From positions 64,001 through 128,000 of the IMG/VR virus record IMGVR_UViG_3300029288_000071: DNA of 64,000 nt, one strand, 5' to 3'. Below are positions 3,109 to 47,388 of the stretch, in pieces. The position numbers and the translations under genes were made by a program. The DNA comes from a virus (taxonomy: Duplodnaviria; Caudoviricetes). The number at the start of each line of letters is the position of its first letter. The first letter of the stretch is position 1. The notes below the pieces were generated by a model. It made no database searches, was not told the DNA's origin, and saw only the letters and a program-made list of their open reading frames with translations.

Positions 3109-3269
3109 TTTATTATTTTTCTTGTTTGTTATTTTTTATTTCAAGTTCAGCTTTTAATTTTCTATTTTCAACAAGCAAATCTCTAACTTGTTGAGCATAA
3201 TCAGCTCGAAGTTTCAGTTCTGCTTTAAGCTTTTCAATTTCTTCTTTGAGTTCAATAAAAGTCATTTTG

Positions 3270-3346
3270 TCCGCTCAGTTGGAGTTGAACCAACGTGTGA
3301 CCGTCTACCCTTTCAACGGCTTATCAGACCGAGGGGATATGAGCGG
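3270..3346 (-). tRNA. tRNA-Ile(GAT) with rearranged D region
   Basis: Perfect acceptor and T arm; anticodon arm CGGT-CTGATAA-GCCG begins about 8 nt after the acceptor 5' strand; D-loop-like AGACGG lies 3' of it. Confidence 0.7.
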
Positions 3347-3351
3347 GTTTT

Positions 3352-3927
3352 TCAAGTTGTAAGCTGGATTGTTGTTTTATTTTTTATCAAATCAACAAGT
3401 TTATTTAATCTTTTCTGTTCTTTCTTTAATTCTGGCATTAATTTCATATTATGTCGTTTGTAAGATGCAAATGCTGTAGAAAGCCAGCTAATATCACTTT
3501 CATCATCAACTAATCTTGTTAAGACTTTAAGCTGTGATAACTCATTTAATGTAACTACTTCGCTATCTGAACAACCCCAACAAAAAGTATCACTACAACT
3601 TAATGTTAAGACAGGATTACTGTCATAGTAAATTGTTTTATCTTCTCTTTTAGCATTCCAATCAGATTCTTTTTTGCTTTTTACAATATGAATAAATAAT
3701 CCGTGATTTTTGAAAAATTCTAAAACTTCTTTTTCTTCATCTTTTAAAGAATTATACCATAATTCTAAAATAGCAGCTCTAGTTGTGATATCAGAATAAC
3801 ATGCATTCCAACCATCTTCCCATTTAGTTCTTTCTTTTGAAGATACTTCTTTACCTTTTTCATCAACTGTTGATGTTTTAGCTGGATATATTCCTGTTGT
3901 ATCTAAAACTTCTTCTAAAAAATTCAT
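3352..3927 (-). CDS. Hypothetical protein
   Basis: 191-aa ORF; GWNAC and CSDTFCWGCSD motifs. Confidence 0.65.
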   Translation of the reverse strand: MNFLEEVLDTTGIYPAKTSTVDEKGKEVSSKERTKWEDGWNACYSDITTRAAILELWYNSLKDEEKEVLEFFKNHGLFIHIVKSKKESDWNAKREDKTIYYDSNPVLTLSCSDTFCWGCSDSEVVTLNELSQLKVLTRLVDDESDISWLSTAFASYKRHNMKLMPELKKEQKRLNKLVDLIKNKTTIQLTT

Positions 3928-4190
3928 ACATCATATCCTATCTTTTGCATTAATAATTCTATTTTCAAATCTTCATCTTTAATATCATTGATAGAAACTC
4001 TTTTTTGAGTTGCTGTTATTACACTTTGTTGAGTTCTTTGAATCTGCTTCACATATTTTTCTACGTATTTCGATAATTCCCTTGGTTTGAGATGACCAAC
4101 ATCTATATAATAGATTTTGCGCGAAGAATCAATTTTATGTTCATATAATTTGTTTTTATAAACTCCAGGAGTTTGAATTCCATTTAACAT
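3924..4190 (-). CDS. Portal-clip-like mini-protein with LMQKIGY module
   Basis: RKIYYIDVGHLKPRELSKYVEK matches RRIFYIDVGNISANDVPSFMQK of this genome's portal. Confidence 0.7.
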   Translation of the reverse strand: MLNGIQTPGVYKNKLYEHKIDSSRKIYYIDVGHLKPRELSKYVEKYVKQIQRTQQSVITATQKRVSINDIKDEDLKIELLMQKIGYDV

Positions 4191-4208
4191 AAAAATTTTC
4201 CTTTTTTG

Positions 4209-4281
4209 TGGTGACTCTCGGTACCGCCCCGAGTTCTACGGTTCTTCAGACCGTCGCAATGGCTTCACCTGCTCAGTCACC
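4209..4281 (-). tRNA. tRNA-Phe(GAA), non-canonical T loop
   Basis: ACGGT-CTGAAGA-ACCGT; T loop GGCGGTA. Confidence 0.8.
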
Positions 4282-31277: not shown

Positions 31278-32441
31278 TTAAATCTCTTTTTTCTTATATT
31301 GAATTTTGCCAGTTTTTGACTTAATCCAATCTTCCAATTTTTTCACAAAATCTTCTGCGGTAGCTCTATCTGGCAAATTCAAATAATACACTTCACCCGT
31401 TCGACTATCATAAACATCAAATATTTCACTCTTCTGATCAATTACAAGTTTTGCGTGCTGTAAATCACGAAAAGGTACAGCGGGTGGTGCCCACGTTACT
31501 TTAGCTTCTTGAATAATTTGCTTGAATGATTTCATTTCTGTCAATTCTACATTTTTAATTCTATATCCTTGTTTTTTATAAAAATTAATTGCTAAATCTT
31601 TAGCTTTATCAGAACTAGAAGCTAGAACATTTATTTTTTTCATTATTGGTTCATTTCGTTTAGTTACCATTGTAGCATTTGAGTCTGTTACAGTTACAAT
31701 GAAATTAAATTTCTGTTTAAATTGACTGTCTTCTTTCAATTTTTTATTTTTTTGTTTTGACATCGGAGCATTGAATCCTGCAACTCCAGCTATTGTTGAC
31801 ATTTCTTCAATATCATCAGAATATTTTACACTTGTAATTTCAGGAAAATTAGATTTGTTTTGATGATATTTTATAGCTCTTTTAACAACTCTAATATCAA
31901 GATTGTATCTTTCTCCTTTTTTATTTTTAATAGTGACATTATTATTATTTATATCAATTATTTCCCATTGGTTATGTTGATAGTCAAATGTTATACCTGG
32001 TTTTATTTCTTGATTTTCATTCACATCATCTCTCTGTCTTTCACCAACATCAACATACAGTTTTCCTGAACCTTTACATTTATCACAAGTAATTCCACTT
32101 TTTGTATCACTCATATCTCCAGTACCCTTACATTTAGGACACTTTACCATTCGTTTGGGTTGTTTGGAAATTATTCCGATGTATTTTCCACCGGGTTTAT
32201 AGAGACCTTCATTCGTAAATTTTGGAGGTTTATCTGATTTCATTGTTTCTACTTTAATATAGTGAATGTGATCAGCGCCATCTCCATCCCATCCATATTT
32301 TCTACCGCCTTTTTCATCAGGATCTATGACAATATCAAAAGTATGACCAATATTCCCAGATTTTTTAATATCATCTAGAATTTTTTCTAGATTATCATCT
32401 TCATCTCTTACCAATAAAGTTATTTTCTTATAAGTTTCCAA
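31278..32441 (-). CDS. Polyprotein with DnaJ-type Zn finger
   Basis: CPKCKGTG, CDKCKGSG; internal MKSFKQIIQE. Confidence 0.55.
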   Translation of the reverse strand: METYKKITLLVRDEDDNLEKILDDIKKSGNIGHTFDIVIDPDEKGGRKYGWDGDGADHIHYIKVETMKSDKPPKFTNEGLYKPGGKYIGIISKQPKRMVKCPKCKGTGDMSDTKSGITCDKCKGSGKLYVDVGERQRDDVNENQEIKPGITFDYQHNQWEIIDINNNNVTIKNKKGERYNLDIRVVKRAIKYHQNKSNFPEITSVKYSDDIEEMSTIAGVAGFNAPMSKQKNKKLKEDSQFKQKFNFIVTVTDSNATMVTKRNEPIMKKINVLASSSDKAKDLAINFYKKQGYRIKNVELTEMKSFKQIIQEAKVTWAPPAVPFRDLQHAKLVIDQKSEIFDVYDSRTGEVYYLNLPDRATAEDFVKKLEDWIKSKTGKIQYKKKEI

Positions 32442-32442
32442 C

Positions 32443-33300
32443 TTATTTCTCTAATTGTTTTAATTCTTCCAAAAGCTGGCTGTACGTCATCAAAGCTTCT
32501 GCTTTTTTCTGTTTCTTAAAAGAACCAACCTCAGCTAGTTTTTGCATTGCTTCAAATACTTTAGATAGTAAAGTTCTGTCTTTTATCTGTTTCATGTGTC
32601 CATACAAATCTTTTTCAAATTTCTTTACTTTCTTTTCAGCAAATCTATCAAAACTATTATCTGAAGTACATCGGATATATTCTTGTAATATCTGTTTTTG
32701 AGTTTCATTTAAAGTTTTATCATATTTGTTATTAAATTTCTTAATGATAAAATAATAAGTTAATTCATCAACTGGAAGATCTTTTTGGGGTTTAGTTACA
32801 AACTCATTGATTCTTTTTATTTCTTTATTATCAAGTAAGTGGTTAATAACACTTTCTTCAATTTGTACTTTATGTTTTACATCATTTATTTTATCATTTC
32901 TAACTGCTTCCATTAAAGAATAGATTGAAGCATATGTTTTATAGTTCGGAACATATGTTTTGAAAAATGTTTCTTTATTAAAATTAGAATTTATTTCAGT
33001 TAAAAGAGCATATTTTTCATCTCTAAGTTTCTTAAGATCTAATTTTTTTGAAGTATTTAAAACTTCTGAAAGGAGATGTGATGCTGATTGCCAATTTTTT
33101 TGTTCAGAATACATGATTGCATTAAAAAGATTTAATTCTTCTAGTAATTGTGAATCTTTATTAAAATATTTTTTTATAAGATAAAGTGCTTTTTTAGCTT
33201 TAGCATCATCTTTAGCTATTTTATTTGAAACTACTTGTTGTGATAGTAATTCGAATAATAGGCCCGAATTACTTTTCTTGTGATGTTTTATTTGTTCCAT
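32443..33300 (-). CDS. Helical protein downstream of portal
   Basis: IKHHKKSNSGLLFELL; position in the head module. Confidence 0.6.
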   Translation of the reverse strand: MEQIKHHKKSNSGLLFELLSQQVVSNKIAKDDAKAKKALYLIKKYFNKDSQLLEELNLFNAIMYSEQKNWQSASHLLSEVLNTSKKLDLKKLRDEKYALLTEINSNFNKETFFKTYVPNYKTYASIYSLMEAVRNDKINDVKHKVQIEESVINHLLDNKEIKRINEFVTKPQKDLPVDELTYYFIIKKFNNKYDKTLNETQKQILQEYIRCTSDNSFDRFAEKKVKKFEKDLYGHMKQIKDRTLLSKVFEAMQKLAEVGSFKKQKKAEALMTYSQLLEELKQLEK

Positions 33301-35173
33301 TATCTTTGCTTTCTCGTAGATTTAATTTTTTATCTAAATTTATAAATATACTGCTAAGTTCTCGTGAAATTTTACTTCGTTCATGTAAAGAATTACTAAG
33401 AAAATCATATTTCTTTGCAACTTTAATAATTTCCTTATCTTCTTTTTGTGAAGGATCAAACAAATCTATAACATTTTTAGGTTGTTCTTCATCTTCTTTC
33501 ACTTCTTTTTCTTTTTTAGCAGTAGGATTAGACATAGACATTGGTCTATTTCCTGAATTTTTATATACAGAACCTGTTCTATTTGCTAAAGAAGGTGCAG
33601 AAGCTCCAGGTTTAGCACCACCGCCTGGAATTATATCAATTGGTTGTTGTCCAGTTGGTAGTGAAGAAGGTGCTTTCCCACCAGCTCCAACATTTCCTAC
33701 TCCAAAAGGTTTTGAACCATAACTTTTACCATCTTCACCTTGTTGTGGCATATTAGCATTTGCAACTTCTTGAGCAATTTGTTGTAATTCAGCATTAAAT
33801 TTAGTATCTTTGTATACTCCAAGATTTATTTCTTTAATTTCATCATCTGTTAGTCTAAGTATTTTTCTCTGAGCTGTTTTTCTATCCATACCAACACTTT
33901 GAATAGCAGTTGTATATGTAGCAAATCTAGTATTCATCAATTCTAATTTCATTTGTTCATTAACAGTAGATGGATTTGTTAAAAGCAATTTAAAATCAGT
34001 TAAATCTTCTACATCTGTGTACCCAAGAGCATACAAATGAATCATTGCAATTTTGTTAAGTTCAGAAACTGCAAATTTTTGAATTCTATTAATTGTTTTA
34101 GCAAATCTAATATCTTCTTGACTTAATGTTGTTTTACCTTGTAATTGTTCTTCAAAAGTAAGATAAGCTCGAGGGATACCTAATGCAGCAATTAAATTTG
34201 ATTGTACATAACGAACATCATCAATATCTCCTAAGTTCTCTGCACCTTTTAAAGTTTCAATTCTTGTACCACTATCTCTTCCTCTAGTAGCTAAGAAATA
34301 GTCTTCTTCTTGTGAATGAACATTATATCTCAAATCAACATTTCCGGAAGAATCAACTAATGGAGATCTTTTTAGAATATCTTTTGCTTTTTGCATAAAT
34401 GATGGTACATCATTTGCACTGATATTTCCTACATCTATATAAAATATTCTTCTTTCAGGAGCTCTTTGAATTCTATACACTAACATAGCATCTTCAATTA
34501 AGTTTAATTGTTTCCAAATTCTACGAGCTGGTTCTACTAATGATTTTCCGTAGGGTAAGAAAGTATCATCACTAACAATTCTAAAGTGAGCAATTTGCCA
34601 ACTATCAAATACTACAGAAGAAGCTGTATTCCATTTGAATCTAACAGAATTAATATCACCATCAAAAGCTTCTTCTCTTTCAATTTCTACAGTAGGAAGA
34701 GGCATAAAACTTGTTATTCCTTCACCTTCAACAACATCTAACAATAAAAAGAAATCTCCATATTTGCACATATTTCTAATCCAATGCCATAAATGTTGTT
34801 CTACTGCTAATTTCTCAAAAAATAATTCTTCTAGAACTTGTTTTATTTTATCTGATGAAGATGCTATATGTAATATTTTTCCATCTTCATTATGTGTAAC
34901 TGAATCATCAGCAAAAATATTTAAAGCAGTTGAAAGAATACTGCTATTTATATCCATCATCTCATAATCACGAGTTCTTGCTAATCTTTCAGTAGATCCA
35001 GCTAAAGAATGCATATATTGATTTGAAGCTACTTTTGCAAATGCTCCAAATATTCTAGACTCCATTCTATTTGACGGACGATCTGCTGGGATTCTACTTT
35101 TTATAGTAGGTCTTCTTAAAAGATTACGTAATCTTTTGTAGAATCGATAGTCACGTTCTATATTGTCTGCCAT
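33269..35173 (-). CDS. Portal protein (T4 gp20-like)
   Basis: LIEDAMLVYRIQRAPERRIFYIDVGN; EDYFL; DIDDVRY. Confidence 0.95.
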   Translation of the reverse strand: MADNIERDYRFYKRLRNLLRRPTIKSRIPADRPSNRMESRIFGAFAKVASNQYMHSLAGSTERLARTRDYEMMDINSSILSTALNIFADDSVTHNEDGKILHIASSSDKIKQVLEELFFEKLAVEQHLWHWIRNMCKYGDFFLLLDVVEGEGITSFMPLPTVEIEREEAFDGDINSVRFKWNTASSVVFDSWQIAHFRIVSDDTFLPYGKSLVEPARRIWKQLNLIEDAMLVYRIQRAPERRIFYIDVGNISANDVPSFMQKAKDILKRSPLVDSSGNVDLRYNVHSQEEDYFLATRGRDSGTRIETLKGAENLGDIDDVRYVQSNLIAALGIPRAYLTFEEQLQGKTTLSQEDIRFAKTINRIQKFAVSELNKIAMIHLYALGYTDVEDLTDFKLLLTNPSTVNEQMKLELMNTRFATYTTAIQSVGMDRKTAQRKILRLTDDEIKEINLGVYKDTKFNAELQQIAQEVANANMPQQGEDGKSYGSKPFGVGNVGAGGKAPSSLPTGQQPIDIIPGGGAKPGASAPSLANRTGSVYKNSGNRPMSMSNPTAKKEKEVKEDEEQPKNVIDLFDPSQKEDKEIIKVAKKYDFLSNSLHERSKISRELSSIFINLDKKLNLRESKDNGTNKTSQEK

Positions 35174-35280: not shown

Positions 35281-36888
35281 TTAGCCTACCAAATAACTTA
35301 AATCTTCACCTGCTACTACAAAAGGATTTTTATTTTGTCCTTTTCTAACATTTTCTTGTTGAATTGATGTATCTTCAACTGAATGTCTACCTTTTTCAAT
35401 ACTAATAGAATTTAATAGAGCTTCTGTTTGTAATATATCAGATGAAGTTAATCTTAAAGTAATATTTCTTACAAATAATCCAATAGCTAATGCCATTACT
35501 AAGTCATCATGTGTTTTTTCTGCTGCTTGAGCTCTAATTTGATTCCCAGTATTAACCCAAATAAATCCTTTAATTTCATCTAATAATCTTGATGAATGAA
35601 TAATATATTGTTTTTGTGTTAGAGTTTCAGCATATGAATTAATTACTAAAGGTCTGTTTTTAGGACCTGTAGTAAATCCTGGAATCTTATCAGGTCCCGG
35701 AATTGACCAATTTAAAGGATCAAAAAATAATTGTCCTTCTACTTTCTTTGACCAATACATCTTAGGATATTGAGAATCTAATACTCTTTGAATTGCTGCA
35801 TATCCAACGTTATTATTTTCACAAACAATCATTGCATTATTATATCTTCTTCCGACTTGAACAAGTAAATCACCAAATGTACTTGGATTTATTTTTCCTT
35901 TATATTCTGCTACTTGTTCCATATCTTCTACACAAGATACAATAATTGTAGAATAGTCTCCACCATCTCCTCTAGCAATATCTGAACTTAAAATGTAATT
36001 CTTTCCATATTCCATTTCTTTCCATATCCAGAAATTATGATCAAAAGCTTCTTTAGAAATTGGTTCTCGTATATAATTCTTTTCATACCATTCAATAGTA
36101 TCTGCATCAATAACAGTGTTTCCTGATTTTGCAAAATCACAACAGTATTCTTGAGCCCATTGAGCAGTTGTCATTGTAGCGCGTTCAGATTCTGCCCAAG
36201 CTTCATCTCTTTCAGGATGCAAACTCCAATGTAATTTTATAGGGAAAAAAGCTGCAACATCGTCAGATTGTCCTGATTCTGCTTTAACCCATTGCTCATG
36301 GAACCAGTTTCCAATACCTTTTGGAGTAGAAAGAATTACTGCAGATCCACCAGTTGCTAATGTAGGTCTAGCTGAAGTCCAAACTTCTTCAACTAATTTA
36401 TTTTTTATCATTGCAGCTTCATCAAATATCAATAAAGATAAAGCTTCAGATCTTGCTGTATCAACAGTTGTAGTAGAAGATTTAATTACTGATTGATTTT
36501 CTAATTGAATAGATTGTTGATTATCATTTGTTTGCGCTGGTACTAACCATTCAGGTACACTATTAAGAAACAATTTACATTTTCTGATAAGATTAGTTGC
36601 TACATTCCCTTTATTTGCAAGAATAAGAATTTCTTTAGCATTAAAAAAACAAGCTAACCACACACAATAAGCAGACATAAGAGTTGATAAACCCATTTGT
36701 CTGCCTTTTACAATAATAACAAATCTATTTTCTAACATTCTTTTTATTACGTTAGTTTGAAAATCATACAAACCAAAAGGTATAATACCACGGTCAGGAT
36801 GTTTAATACGTCCATATTTGTTAATAAAGTAACAAGGATCTTGTCTACATTTAGCTATTTCAGCTATTTGATCATTTGTTAATTGCAT
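35281..36888 (-). CDS. Terminase large subunit (T4 gp17-like)
   Basis: KGRQMGLST, LLIFDEAA, ILSTPKG, DIARG.G.DYS, HDDLVMA. Confidence 0.95.
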   Translation of the reverse strand: MQLTNDQIAEIAKCRQDPCYFINKYGRIKHPDRGIIPFGLYDFQTNVIKRMLENRFVIIVKGRQMGLSTLMSAYCVWLACFFNAKEILILANKGNVATNLIRKCKLFLNSVPEWLVPAQTNDNQQSIQLENQSVIKSSTTTVDTARSEALSLLIFDEAAMIKNKLVEEVWTSARPTLATGGSAVILSTPKGIGNWFHEQWVKAESGQSDDVAAFFPIKLHWSLHPERDEAWAESERATMTTAQWAQEYCCDFAKSGNTVIDADTIEWYEKNYIREPISKEAFDHNFWIWKEMEYGKNYILSSDIARGDGGDYSTIIVSCVEDMEQVAEYKGKINPSTFGDLLVQVGRRYNNAMIVCENNNVGYAAIQRVLDSQYPKMYWSKKVEGQLFFDPLNWSIPGPDKIPGFTTGPKNRPLVINSYAETLTQKQYIIHSSRLLDEIKGFIWVNTGNQIRAQAAEKTHDDLVMALAIGLFVRNITLRLTSSDILQTEALLNSISIEKGRHSVEDTSIQQENVRKGQNKNPFVVAGEDLSYLVG

Positions 36889-45447: not shown

Positions 45448-47388
45448 TTACTTTAAAAATTCATTAAGTTGTTCATCATAACAGTGAATCAATTTATTCT
45501 CAATTGCTACTTTATTTAATTCTAAACTATGTTCTTTACAAATTCTTATATAGTCTTCAATTTCAATTTTATTGTTTTCTTTACACCATTTAATTAATTG
45601 TTTTATGAGCTTAAGATGATTATTGATTATATCTTTAGCTCTTTCTTTTTGTTCTTGAAGCATAACTTCAATTAATTTATTTGTAGAATCAATGTCATAA
45701 TTCCAAGCTCCTGCATCATTTGGAGTTTTAGTCGTTATTCTAGATAAATTACCGTCCATTCCTAATCTGCGAATAAAAGATGAAGCATATTCAGTAGCTT
45801 GAGCTAAATCTTGTATGCTTCCAGCAGATCTATAATTATCTCCAAAAATTGTTTCTTCTAAGATTTGCCCTGCTAAACATATACAAATATCATTTTTCAT
45901 ATATATTTTATTTGAAACTCTATCATGAAAAGCAGTAAATCCATTATTTGTTATACGTGTAGAATTTATGTTTATTTGAGTTGGAGCACATTTATATAAA
46001 ACACTATAAACAATGCTGTGCCCTAATTCATGTACTGCAACTAATATTTTTTCATCTATAGATTTTTTCTTTTTGATAGATTCAATATCAAGTTTTATAG
46101 TTCTTTTTAAATCTCCACAAATTAGCTTATCATATTCATGATCAATAACTATAGATTGTAAATCGTCTTTCATTGAATAAAATAAGAAATATGGTAGATT
46201 ATTCTCTAATATTTGAGAAATTGTAGATAATACAGGTCGTACTCCTTGAGTTGGAAACACTCCATTTTTATAGATTAAATCGTAAATAGCATCTGTAAAA
46301 CTTATATCAATTTTAGTATTTTCTTTTACTCTTTTTGAAATTTCAAAACAATGATTTTTGATGATTGTTTGATAACTAGATTTGCTTAAAGTAGGATAAA
46401 TAATATGTGTATTTCCGAATCTAGAAATCTGTTCTGGCTTAAATTGTTTCATTAAAGATTTTTTAATTTCTACTATGTTAATTTTTTTAGAAAATTCATG
46501 ATATATGTCAGCATCCATTTCAACATCTTCTACTTCACCACTCATACTGAATGCTTCATCTAAATTTCCTGATATGAAAATTAACATTTTCTGATAATTA
46601 TCACCTTCATAAGTTTCATTTTTGTCGAAACTTCTTTGAAGCAAATCTAACCTTTCATCTGGAGATAGTTGCATTATTTCTTCAATTGTTAAATTAGACT
46701 TTAACAATCTCTTAAATTGTTTTGCTTTATAATAATATGTCTGATATTTGAACTGAGGTTTTTCTTTTGGTACTTCTGAATCTTCTATTTTTTCTATATC
46801 ATTGCTATTTAAAGCTTTAGATTTTCTTTTTCTTTTTTTAGGAATAGGATCATTATTTTTATGCCATAATGTGTATTCTTTGTCATAAAGTTCTTCCATT
46901 ATTAAAGAAAATATTTCTCTTCTATTGCTAGAATTTGATTGAAATTTTCCATCAGAAAGAAGCATCCAAATGTCATTAAAATATTCATTATCTCTGATCA
47001 TGTTTCCTTCTTCATCAATAGTTCTAAATCTTTGCATTTCATCTAGCAATAAAATACAAGGCTCTTTAGAATCTACATTTGTATTTTCAATGACATCTTG
47101 AATCTTTTTAACGTGTTCTTCTTTCATGTCAAGTTGAATTTCAATGAATTTATCATTAAATTCTAAAAATTTAACAAGCTTTCTAACTAAATCAGTTTTC
47201 CCCACTCCTGTTGTACCCCATAAAGAAATTATCATAGGTCTAGATTGTAATTCAGGCATGACATACCATATTTGAATGTTATTGACAATTTCATCTATGA
47301 TATTGTCTAAACCTACAAATTCATGTTTTAGAAAAACTTTAAGTTCTTCTAATTTTTCAAGCTTTTTTTGATAATTTTCATTTATCAT
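45448..47388 (-). CDS. Soluble AAA+ ATPase fused to M41 (FtsH-type) peptidase
   Basis: GTTGVGKT, LLLDE, FKPEQISRF, GVRP; AVHELGH, CLAG..EE..FG, GS..DL..AT; no TM. Confidence 0.85.
   Translation of the reverse strand: MINENYQKKLEKLEELKVFLKHEFVGLDNIIDEIVNNIQIWYVMPELQSRPMIISLWGTTGVGKTDLVRKLVKFLEFNDKFIEIQLDMKEEHVKKIQDVIENTNVDSKEPCILLLDEMQRFRTIDEEGNMIRDNEYFNDIWMLLSDGKFQSNSSNRREIFSLIMEELYDKEYTLWHKNNDPIPKKRKRKSKALNSNDIEKIEDSEVPKEKPQFKYQTYYYKAKQFKRLLKSNLTIEEIMQLSPDERLDLLQRSFDKNETYEGDNYQKMLIFISGNLDEAFSMSGEVEDVEMDADIYHEFSKKINIVEIKKSLMKQFKPEQISRFGNTHIIYPTLSKSSYQTIIKNHCFEISKRVKENTKIDISFTDAIYDLIYKNGVFPTQGVRPVLSTISQILENNLPYFLFYSMKDDLQSIVIDHEYDKLICGDLKRTIKLDIESIKKKKSIDEKILVAVHELGHSIVYSVLYKCAPTQININSTRITNNGFTAFHDRVSNKIYMKNDICICLAGQILEETIFGDNYRSAGSIQDLAQATEYASSFIRRLGMDGNLSRITTKTPNDAGAWNYDIDSTNKLIEVMLQEQKERAKDIINNHLKLIKQLIKWCKENNKIEIEDYIRICKEHSLELNKVAIENKLIHCYDEQLNEFLK

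Follow-up and report, generated by a model that had tools for sequence, protein, structure and literature searches.

The clip domain of the phage T4 portal protein gp20 (residues 279-358) lies exposed on the outer side of the capsid, contains three strands and helix alpha6, and forms the attachment site for gp17 and, later, for the neck (PMC4493910). Residues N291, M292, R295, and K296 at its tip face gp17, the tip mutations N291A-M292A and R295A-K296A abolish T4 packaging, and a 24-residue peptide spanning gp20 288-311 has been reported to bind gp17 and to inhibit packaging (PMC4493910). In the clip sheet, a single strand from one subunit joins two strands from its neighbor, an arrangement that provides the only main-chain contact between subunits (PMC4493910). 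Bacterial defenses make use of portals as well: SpbK docks on the clip helix of YonE, the escape mutation A291P lies in that helix, activation of SpbK needs clustering on the portal dodecamer, and many Avs families sense core virion (head) proteins. Gpi, encoded by the Vibrio PLE satellite, is a small inhibitor of the large terminase (TerL) of phage ICP1. The SaPI protein Ppi and the PICI protein Rpp act against TerS. Among the microProteins, or small interfering peptides, of plants and animals are LITTLE ZIPPER and the Id proteins. A literature search returned no published phage-encoded mimic or decoy of the portal clip.

The window analyzed here is a stretch of 64,000 bases (64001-128000 of a 207,030-bp IMG/VR virus record) from an uncultured, T4-like phage; its G+C content is 29%, and the minus strand carries nearly all of the genes. 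One of these, an open frame for an 88-residue protein referred to below as the mini-protein, lies 29 kb from the portal gene within a region of at least 23 tRNA genes (Table 1). It is a real gene, as judged by its ribosome-binding site, its ATGA overlap with the next gene, and its conserved homologue. The overlap suggests that translation of the mini-protein is coupled to that of the downstream frame. Promoter scans found no T4-type late promoter signal and no enrichment, and TATAAATA was not enriched upstream of genes.

Table 1. Position of the mini-protein gene, its modules and flanking signals, and of the portal and terminase genes, in the window
Feature	Position	Strand	Basis
Mini-protein gene (P0001), 88 aa	3924..4190	-	ORF list, translation; called gene on the 207,030-bp contig
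Ribosome-binding site AGGAAAA, ~8 nt 5' of the mini-protein ATG	4196..4202	-	read from sequence
ATGA, mini-protein stop overlapping the start of the downstream 191-aa ORF (3352-3927)	3924..3927	-	coordinates, sequence
Portal-clip-like module, mini-protein residues 21-67	3990..4130	-	hhalign, clade HMM, AF2 secondary structure
22-residue core, mini-protein residues 24-45, RKIYYIDVGHLKPRELSKYVEK	4056..4121	-	translation, BLASTP; ~ T4 gp20 283-304
Common 12-residue tail, mini-protein residues 75-86, ending in LLMQKIGY	3933..3968	-	motif scan, AF2
66-nt tRNA-like cloverleaf directly upstream of the mini-protein gene	4208-4273	-	sequence inspection
Portal gene, 634 aa	33269..35173	-	Portal_T4, E 1.6e-69
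Matched portal segment, residues 238-281 (first clip strand, tip, helix alpha6)	34331..34462	-	alignments, AF2
Large terminase TerL, T4-type N-terminal ATPase domain, candidate partner	35281..36888	-	Pfam Terminase_6N, E 1.5e-11

An exhaustive HMMER search yielded a single true homologue of the mini-protein, the 66-residue P0003 from another sample (ENA contigs of at most 2 kb), which is 42% identical to it. P0003 retains the core (KIHYVDVSNVKPEELEKY) and the tail (DPIKILMKKIGY) and is without the first ~14 residues and part of the linker. A second candidate, P0004, was rejected as a spurious HEAT-repeat match. A word-index search with the mini-protein returned only the mini-protein, scans of viral and metagenome contigs found no further relatives, and P0003 used as the query retrieved only full portals, in confirmation of the resemblance to them, and no additional mini-genes. 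A degenerate DNA pattern derived from the core matched only unrelated GC-rich bacterial proteins; the stretch LWLYVDVTKLKP(K/R)ELRAY in bacterial metagenome proteins of this kind comes near to the mini-protein core, a likeness judged to be a strand-turn-helix motif arrived at convergently by chance. A further protein, P0005 (72 aa; Logan contig, at most 6.2 kb), shares only the C-terminal 35 residues of the mini-protein (ITATQ...LLMQKIGY, 63% identity). Its N-terminus is different and has the look of a helix-turn-helix, and the pairing of the same C-terminal module with another N-terminus indicates that modules are shuffled between genes.

The initial annotation had proposed that the mini-protein copies a segment of the portal clip and is fused to an LMQKIGY module. 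Both peptides quoted in its support occur exactly as quoted in the mini-protein and in the portal (ORF 33269-35173, residues 241-262 of which read RRIFYIDVGNISANDVPSFMQK), and the mini-protein C-terminus does carry LLMQKIGY, two residues before the stop. Pairwise BLASTP of the mini-protein against the phage's own portal gave 9 identities in 30 positions (E 8e-5, as a single comparison). In a self-genome BLAST the same match scored E 0.005 and sat among a few chance-level matches, so the BLASTP likeness is not convincing by itself. In a Pfam search of the mini-protein, Portal_T4 (PF07230) was the sole family returned (E 0.004, profile positions 205-235), and PHROG 213, a portal family, matched with E 0.013. 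P0003 alone likewise matches PHROG 213 as well as Portal_T4 (E 0.009, positions 206-252), and the profile positions are the same as for the mini-protein. Both Pfam scores (16.3 bits for the mini-protein, 15.2 bits for P0003) lie below the curated gathering cut-off of 22.9 bits.

In addition, 120 portal relatives were collected, and a clade portal HMM was built from the 115 without inteins. This model scored the mini-protein at 19.4 bits (E 2e-4, set of 10,003 sequences), with residues 23-65 opposite HMM positions 240-280, and the best of 10,000 composition-preserving shuffles of the mini-protein reached 10.8 bits. Run against all open frames of at least 30 aa in six frames (n = 2,479), it matched the portal and the mini-protein gene only (19.1 bits, E 6e-5, for the latter), and the next best frame in the genome scored 5.2 bits. 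Alignment by hhalign of the mini-protein pair with 60 portals gave a probability of 94.5% and an E value of 7.7e-8, placing mini-protein residues 21-67 against portal residues 238-281. A lack of significant profile similarity had been named beforehand as grounds for refuting the clip likeness, which this result left standing. At 17 bits, the mini-protein profile also singled out the portal genes in three unrelated phage records; tblastn of the mini-protein against GenBank phages returned portal genes only, at E of about 6, and a PDB profile search with the two mini-protein sequences gave no significant match. The homology between the mini-protein and the portal clip is real and far above chance.

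The copied piece corresponds approximately to T4 gp20 280-323 and takes in the first strand and the tip of the clip, helix alpha6, and a short stretch beyond it. When the own portal is aligned to gp20, mini-protein residues 24-53 fall opposite gp20 283-312, inside the clip domain, and residues 29-52 are equivalent to the gp17-binding peptide, gp20 288-311. The earlier assignment of this region to the clip and to terminase docking is thus borne out by T4, in which the four tip residues contact gp17 and the peptide is reported to bind it. In an AF2 model of the own portal, this region (pLDDT about 80-88) consists of strand 241-247, helix 253-269, and two further strands, 292-296 and 304-308. A poor model of the mini-protein (pLDDT 57.8) contains a strand at 25-29, a helix at 36-51, and a helix over the tail at 73-83; the order and positions of its strand and first helix match those of the aligned portal elements, at the low confidence of that model, and a Foldseek search of it against the PDB gave no match at E <=0.001. 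The mini-protein therefore covers portal strand 241-247 and is without the hairpin at 292-308. Portal residues 241-250 form the most conserved 10-residue block in the portal alignment. At the equivalents of T4 N291, M292, and K296, the two mini-proteins carry H/N, L/V, and E/E, as against N, V/I, and D/E in the clade, and are portal-like at three of the four tip positions; at the fourth (T4 R295) they carry R/E, as against E/Q/N. Because the scores fall below the Pfam cut-off and the full portal architecture (wing, stem, clip, and crown, about 430 profile positions) is incomplete in a protein of 88 residues, the mini-protein is a portal clip-derived fragment and not a functional portal. Several clade portals (P0012, P0017, P0019, P0054, and P0065) carry an intein (PF14890, in some with an HNH domain). 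In P0012 and P0017, an alignment excerpt places it in the clip domain right after the VDLR(F/Y)NV strand, a few residues past the end of the mini-protein homology.

The relationship of the mini-proteins to portals in general differs from that to the portal of this phage. Over 31 aligned clip positions, the mini-protein and P0003 share 12 identities, and each shares up to 11 with ordinary portals; that the two are as similar to typical portals as to each other speaks for selection to remain portal-like. The own portal ranks only 102nd and 110th of 115 portals by similarity to the two mini-proteins. The tip reads NISAND in its own lineage and NV(P/A)PED in most of the clade, as against HLKPRE and NVKPEE in the mini-proteins, which are thus closer to a generic clade portal than to the phage's own. 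Over the 90 aligned nucleotides, DNA identity between the mini-protein gene and the own portal gene is 56%, from which the copy is taken to be old. A recent duplication of the own portal is rejected on account of this identity and the near-bottom similarity rank. As far as can be read from the sequences, the module is an old portal copy that has been selectively kept.

The C-terminal part of the mini-protein, an acidic linker followed by the tail, connects it to a larger set of proteins. A genome scan for the pattern [LIMV][LIMV]x[KR][LIMV]GY gave 26 occurrences spread over 25 open frames, always on the coding strand, mostly 0-10 residues from the stop and often after DPI; a few occurrences are internal or N-terminal, and in one case the motif is doubled. 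By this motif the mini-protein belongs to a family of tagged small proteins of the phage. Two other tagged proteins match a large plus-strand protein in the self-genome BLAST (E 1e-8 and 3e-11), which is taken to be a capsid protein. A fragment of a sister phage (IMGVR_UViG_3300037067_027217, 39.6 kb) has at least 10 tagged small ORFs with the same tail, one of which contains a DLVSVQP piece that presumably resembles a T4 capsid motif. A literature search found no paper containing the tail motif. The window also encodes a 646-residue protein (45448-47388, minus strand) with an AAA+ ATPase, a ClpB D2-small domain, and an M41 (FtsH-type) peptidase domain, which looks like an FtsH-like protease, unusual for a phage. 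It is conceivable that this protease reads peptide tags. Its counterpart is absent from one sister phage fragment, itself only 24% complete, and the occasional internal or N-terminal position of the tail speaks against a simple C-terminal degron.

Based on these comparisons, a simple model would suggest that the mini-protein is probably a soluble mimic of the portal docking site. Competitive mimicry of the clip, whatever the partner, is considered likely; as candidate partners, the packaging motor and a clip-docking host sensor are ranked about equally. The first choice, advanced tentatively and at less than even confidence by analogy with T4, is that the mini-protein binds the T4-type TerL, the gene for which adjoins the portal gene. 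The mini-protein is composed of two modules, the clip-like residues 21-67 and, beyond the acidic linker, the 12-residue helical tail. As a monomer, it would occupy the TerL site that normally grips the clip, and docking of the motor would be delayed or blocked. The outcome could be either timing of the phage's own packaging or, more likely given the consensus-like sequence, interference with co-infecting relatives, and the tail would tie the mini-protein to a partner common to the tagged proteins. Binding to TerL is favored because the gp20 peptide is the only direct precedent for the sufficiency of such a fragment, because the clip homology is significant and position specific over a region that includes gp20 288-311, and because a small natural TerL inhibitor exists in Gpi. 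It is weakened by the poor AF2 model without a fold match, and it leaves the copying of capsid pieces by other tagged proteins unexplained. Three features, namely the consensus-like sequence, the accessory location, and the shuffling of modules, speak against a regulator matched to the motor of this very phage and would fit either a decoy aimed at a pattern receptor or a weapon directed at related phages. The low similarity rank of the own portal likewise speaks against a regulator matched to the TerL of this phage.

The alternative, nearly as likely but again at less than even confidence, is an immune decoy: the mini-protein would present the clip epitope to a host sensor (SpbK-, Avs4-, or Avs11-like, or another) for which portal clips are the docking site. 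A monomer would then occupy the sensor without the multivalent platform or full fold needed for activation, and the shared tail may sequester the bound sensor or pass it to a common partner. The initial annotation, whose proposal of an immune decoy or a packaging regulator is partly supported here, had invoked the sensing of portals by host defenses, in agreement with what is known: the clip helix is the experimentally supported docking site of SpbK, and Avs4 touches the same small portal region that the mini-protein copies. Since SpbK needs the dodecamer to cluster, a monomeric clip copy should block it. The sensing of core head proteins by many Avs families is in keeping with such a role, and the mini-proteins are consensus-like and unlike the own portal, as expected of bait for a pattern-recognition receptor. 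The accessory region that holds the gene shuffles fast, P0005 having no more than the C-terminal module in common with it, and the copying of capsid pieces by sister tagged proteins also finds a place here. However, trigger fragments can activate sensors rather than block them, and Avs4 binds a surface much larger than the mini-protein fragment. An extension of this idea, which is speculative and rather unlikely as a whole, would treat the tagged proteins as an undescribed class of baits in which conserved head-protein epitopes (portal clip, capsid, and protease pieces) are each fused to one shared docking helix. Together, via the common partner of the tail, these baits would neutralize either host pattern-recognition sensors directed at core virion proteins or the machinery with which rival phages assemble.

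The portal itself could instead be the target. If the copied strand adds to the two-stranded hairpin of a neighboring subunit in the ring, the mini-protein would dock on free portal subunits as a cap or chaperone and might keep the ring from closing (a dominant-negative effect on rival phages), shield monomers until assembly, or compete with the neck protein for the clip. The composite T4 clip sheet, with its unique main-chain contact, agrees with this, as do the presence in the mini-protein of strand 241-247 and not of hairpin 292-308 and the location of that strand in the most conserved block of the portal. The possibility is nonetheless improbable: the identity of the donated strand was deduced rather than taken from coordinates, the own portal would be poisoned too, and co-expression with a portal gene 29 kb away is without support. 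Still less probable is a decaying relic, a functionless frame left when recombination, for example by a mobile element, moved a portal piece into the tRNA region. The inteins that portals of relatives carry a few residues after the end of the homology would suit such an origin, as would the rarity of a family of which only the mini-protein and P0003 were found. Yet these two, at 42% identity, have kept core and tail while the linker and N-terminus vary, and a copy as old as 56% DNA identity implies nevertheless retains an intact frame, a ribosome-binding site, and a coupled downstream gene. A chance resemblance of a generic strand-turn-helix motif is largely refuted and can be given almost no weight. 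A pattern built from the core did find the same nine fixed residues in unrelated GC-rich bacterial proteins, but the shuffle and genome-wide controls, the hhalign E value of 7.7e-8, and the matching of two family members to the same profile positions all stand against it.

Set beside the described systems, the closest is the T4 gp20 clip itself (PF07230; PDB 3JA7, 6UZC; residues 279-358), to whose first strand, tip, and helix alpha6 the mini-protein is homologous, within limits that nearly coincide with those of the gp20 288-311 peptide. In contrast to gp20, the mini-protein is a natural free-standing gene product that is without the wing, the stem, the crown, and the second half of the clip, that falls below the Pfam gathering cut-off, and that adds an unrelated C-terminal tail. 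With Gpi, Ppi, and Rpp it would share a proposed mode of action, in which a small accessory protein binds the packaging motor and stops packaging; those proteins are, however, satellite encoded and not reported to be portal derived, and their binding has been shown, whereas the mini-protein is phage encoded and its binding is inferred. SpbK and Avs4, which contact the corresponding portal region, are host receptors, and the mini-protein again differs in being encoded by the phage. The likeness to microProteins lies in the use of one interaction piece of a larger protein, with non-productive complexes expected; they belong to another kingdom and derive from other proteins, and in the mini-protein the fragment is fused to a tail common to a gene family. 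The other tagged mini-proteins of the phage have the same tail, small size, and patchwork design; two of them copy the putative capsid protein, and the member described here copies the portal clip.

Not only the packaging motor and the neck but also bacterial immune sensors of at least two kinds dock at the portal clip, and a natural free-standing copy of this hub alone would serve as a ready-made probe and inhibitor. Such a copy could reveal the means by which phages control the timing of DNA packaging or sabotage it, or by which they evade sensors of conserved virion proteins. The shared tail points to a wider, unstudied organization of many small phage proteins around one partner. With a piece this small and so few partners, the question is directly testable.

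Some neighboring elements of the window are also of note. The cloverleaf upstream of the mini-protein gene has a 6-bp acceptor stem, the anticodon loop CUGAAGA (GAA, Phe), and an atypical T-loop; ARAGORN made no call there, Rfam gave no match at this site at E up to 1, and no tRNA-Phe is called anywhere in the window. A second GC-rich tRNA-like element (3268-3346, minus strand) has a 7-bp acceptor stem and a T-arm-like hairpin, GUUGG UUCAACU CCAAC, but its D and anticodon regions are odd. A 387-residue protein encoded two genes downstream of the portal (31278-32441, minus strand) contains a DnaJ/Anti-TRAP-type CXXCXGXG zinc-finger stretch with an E value of 3e-6, below the cut-off.
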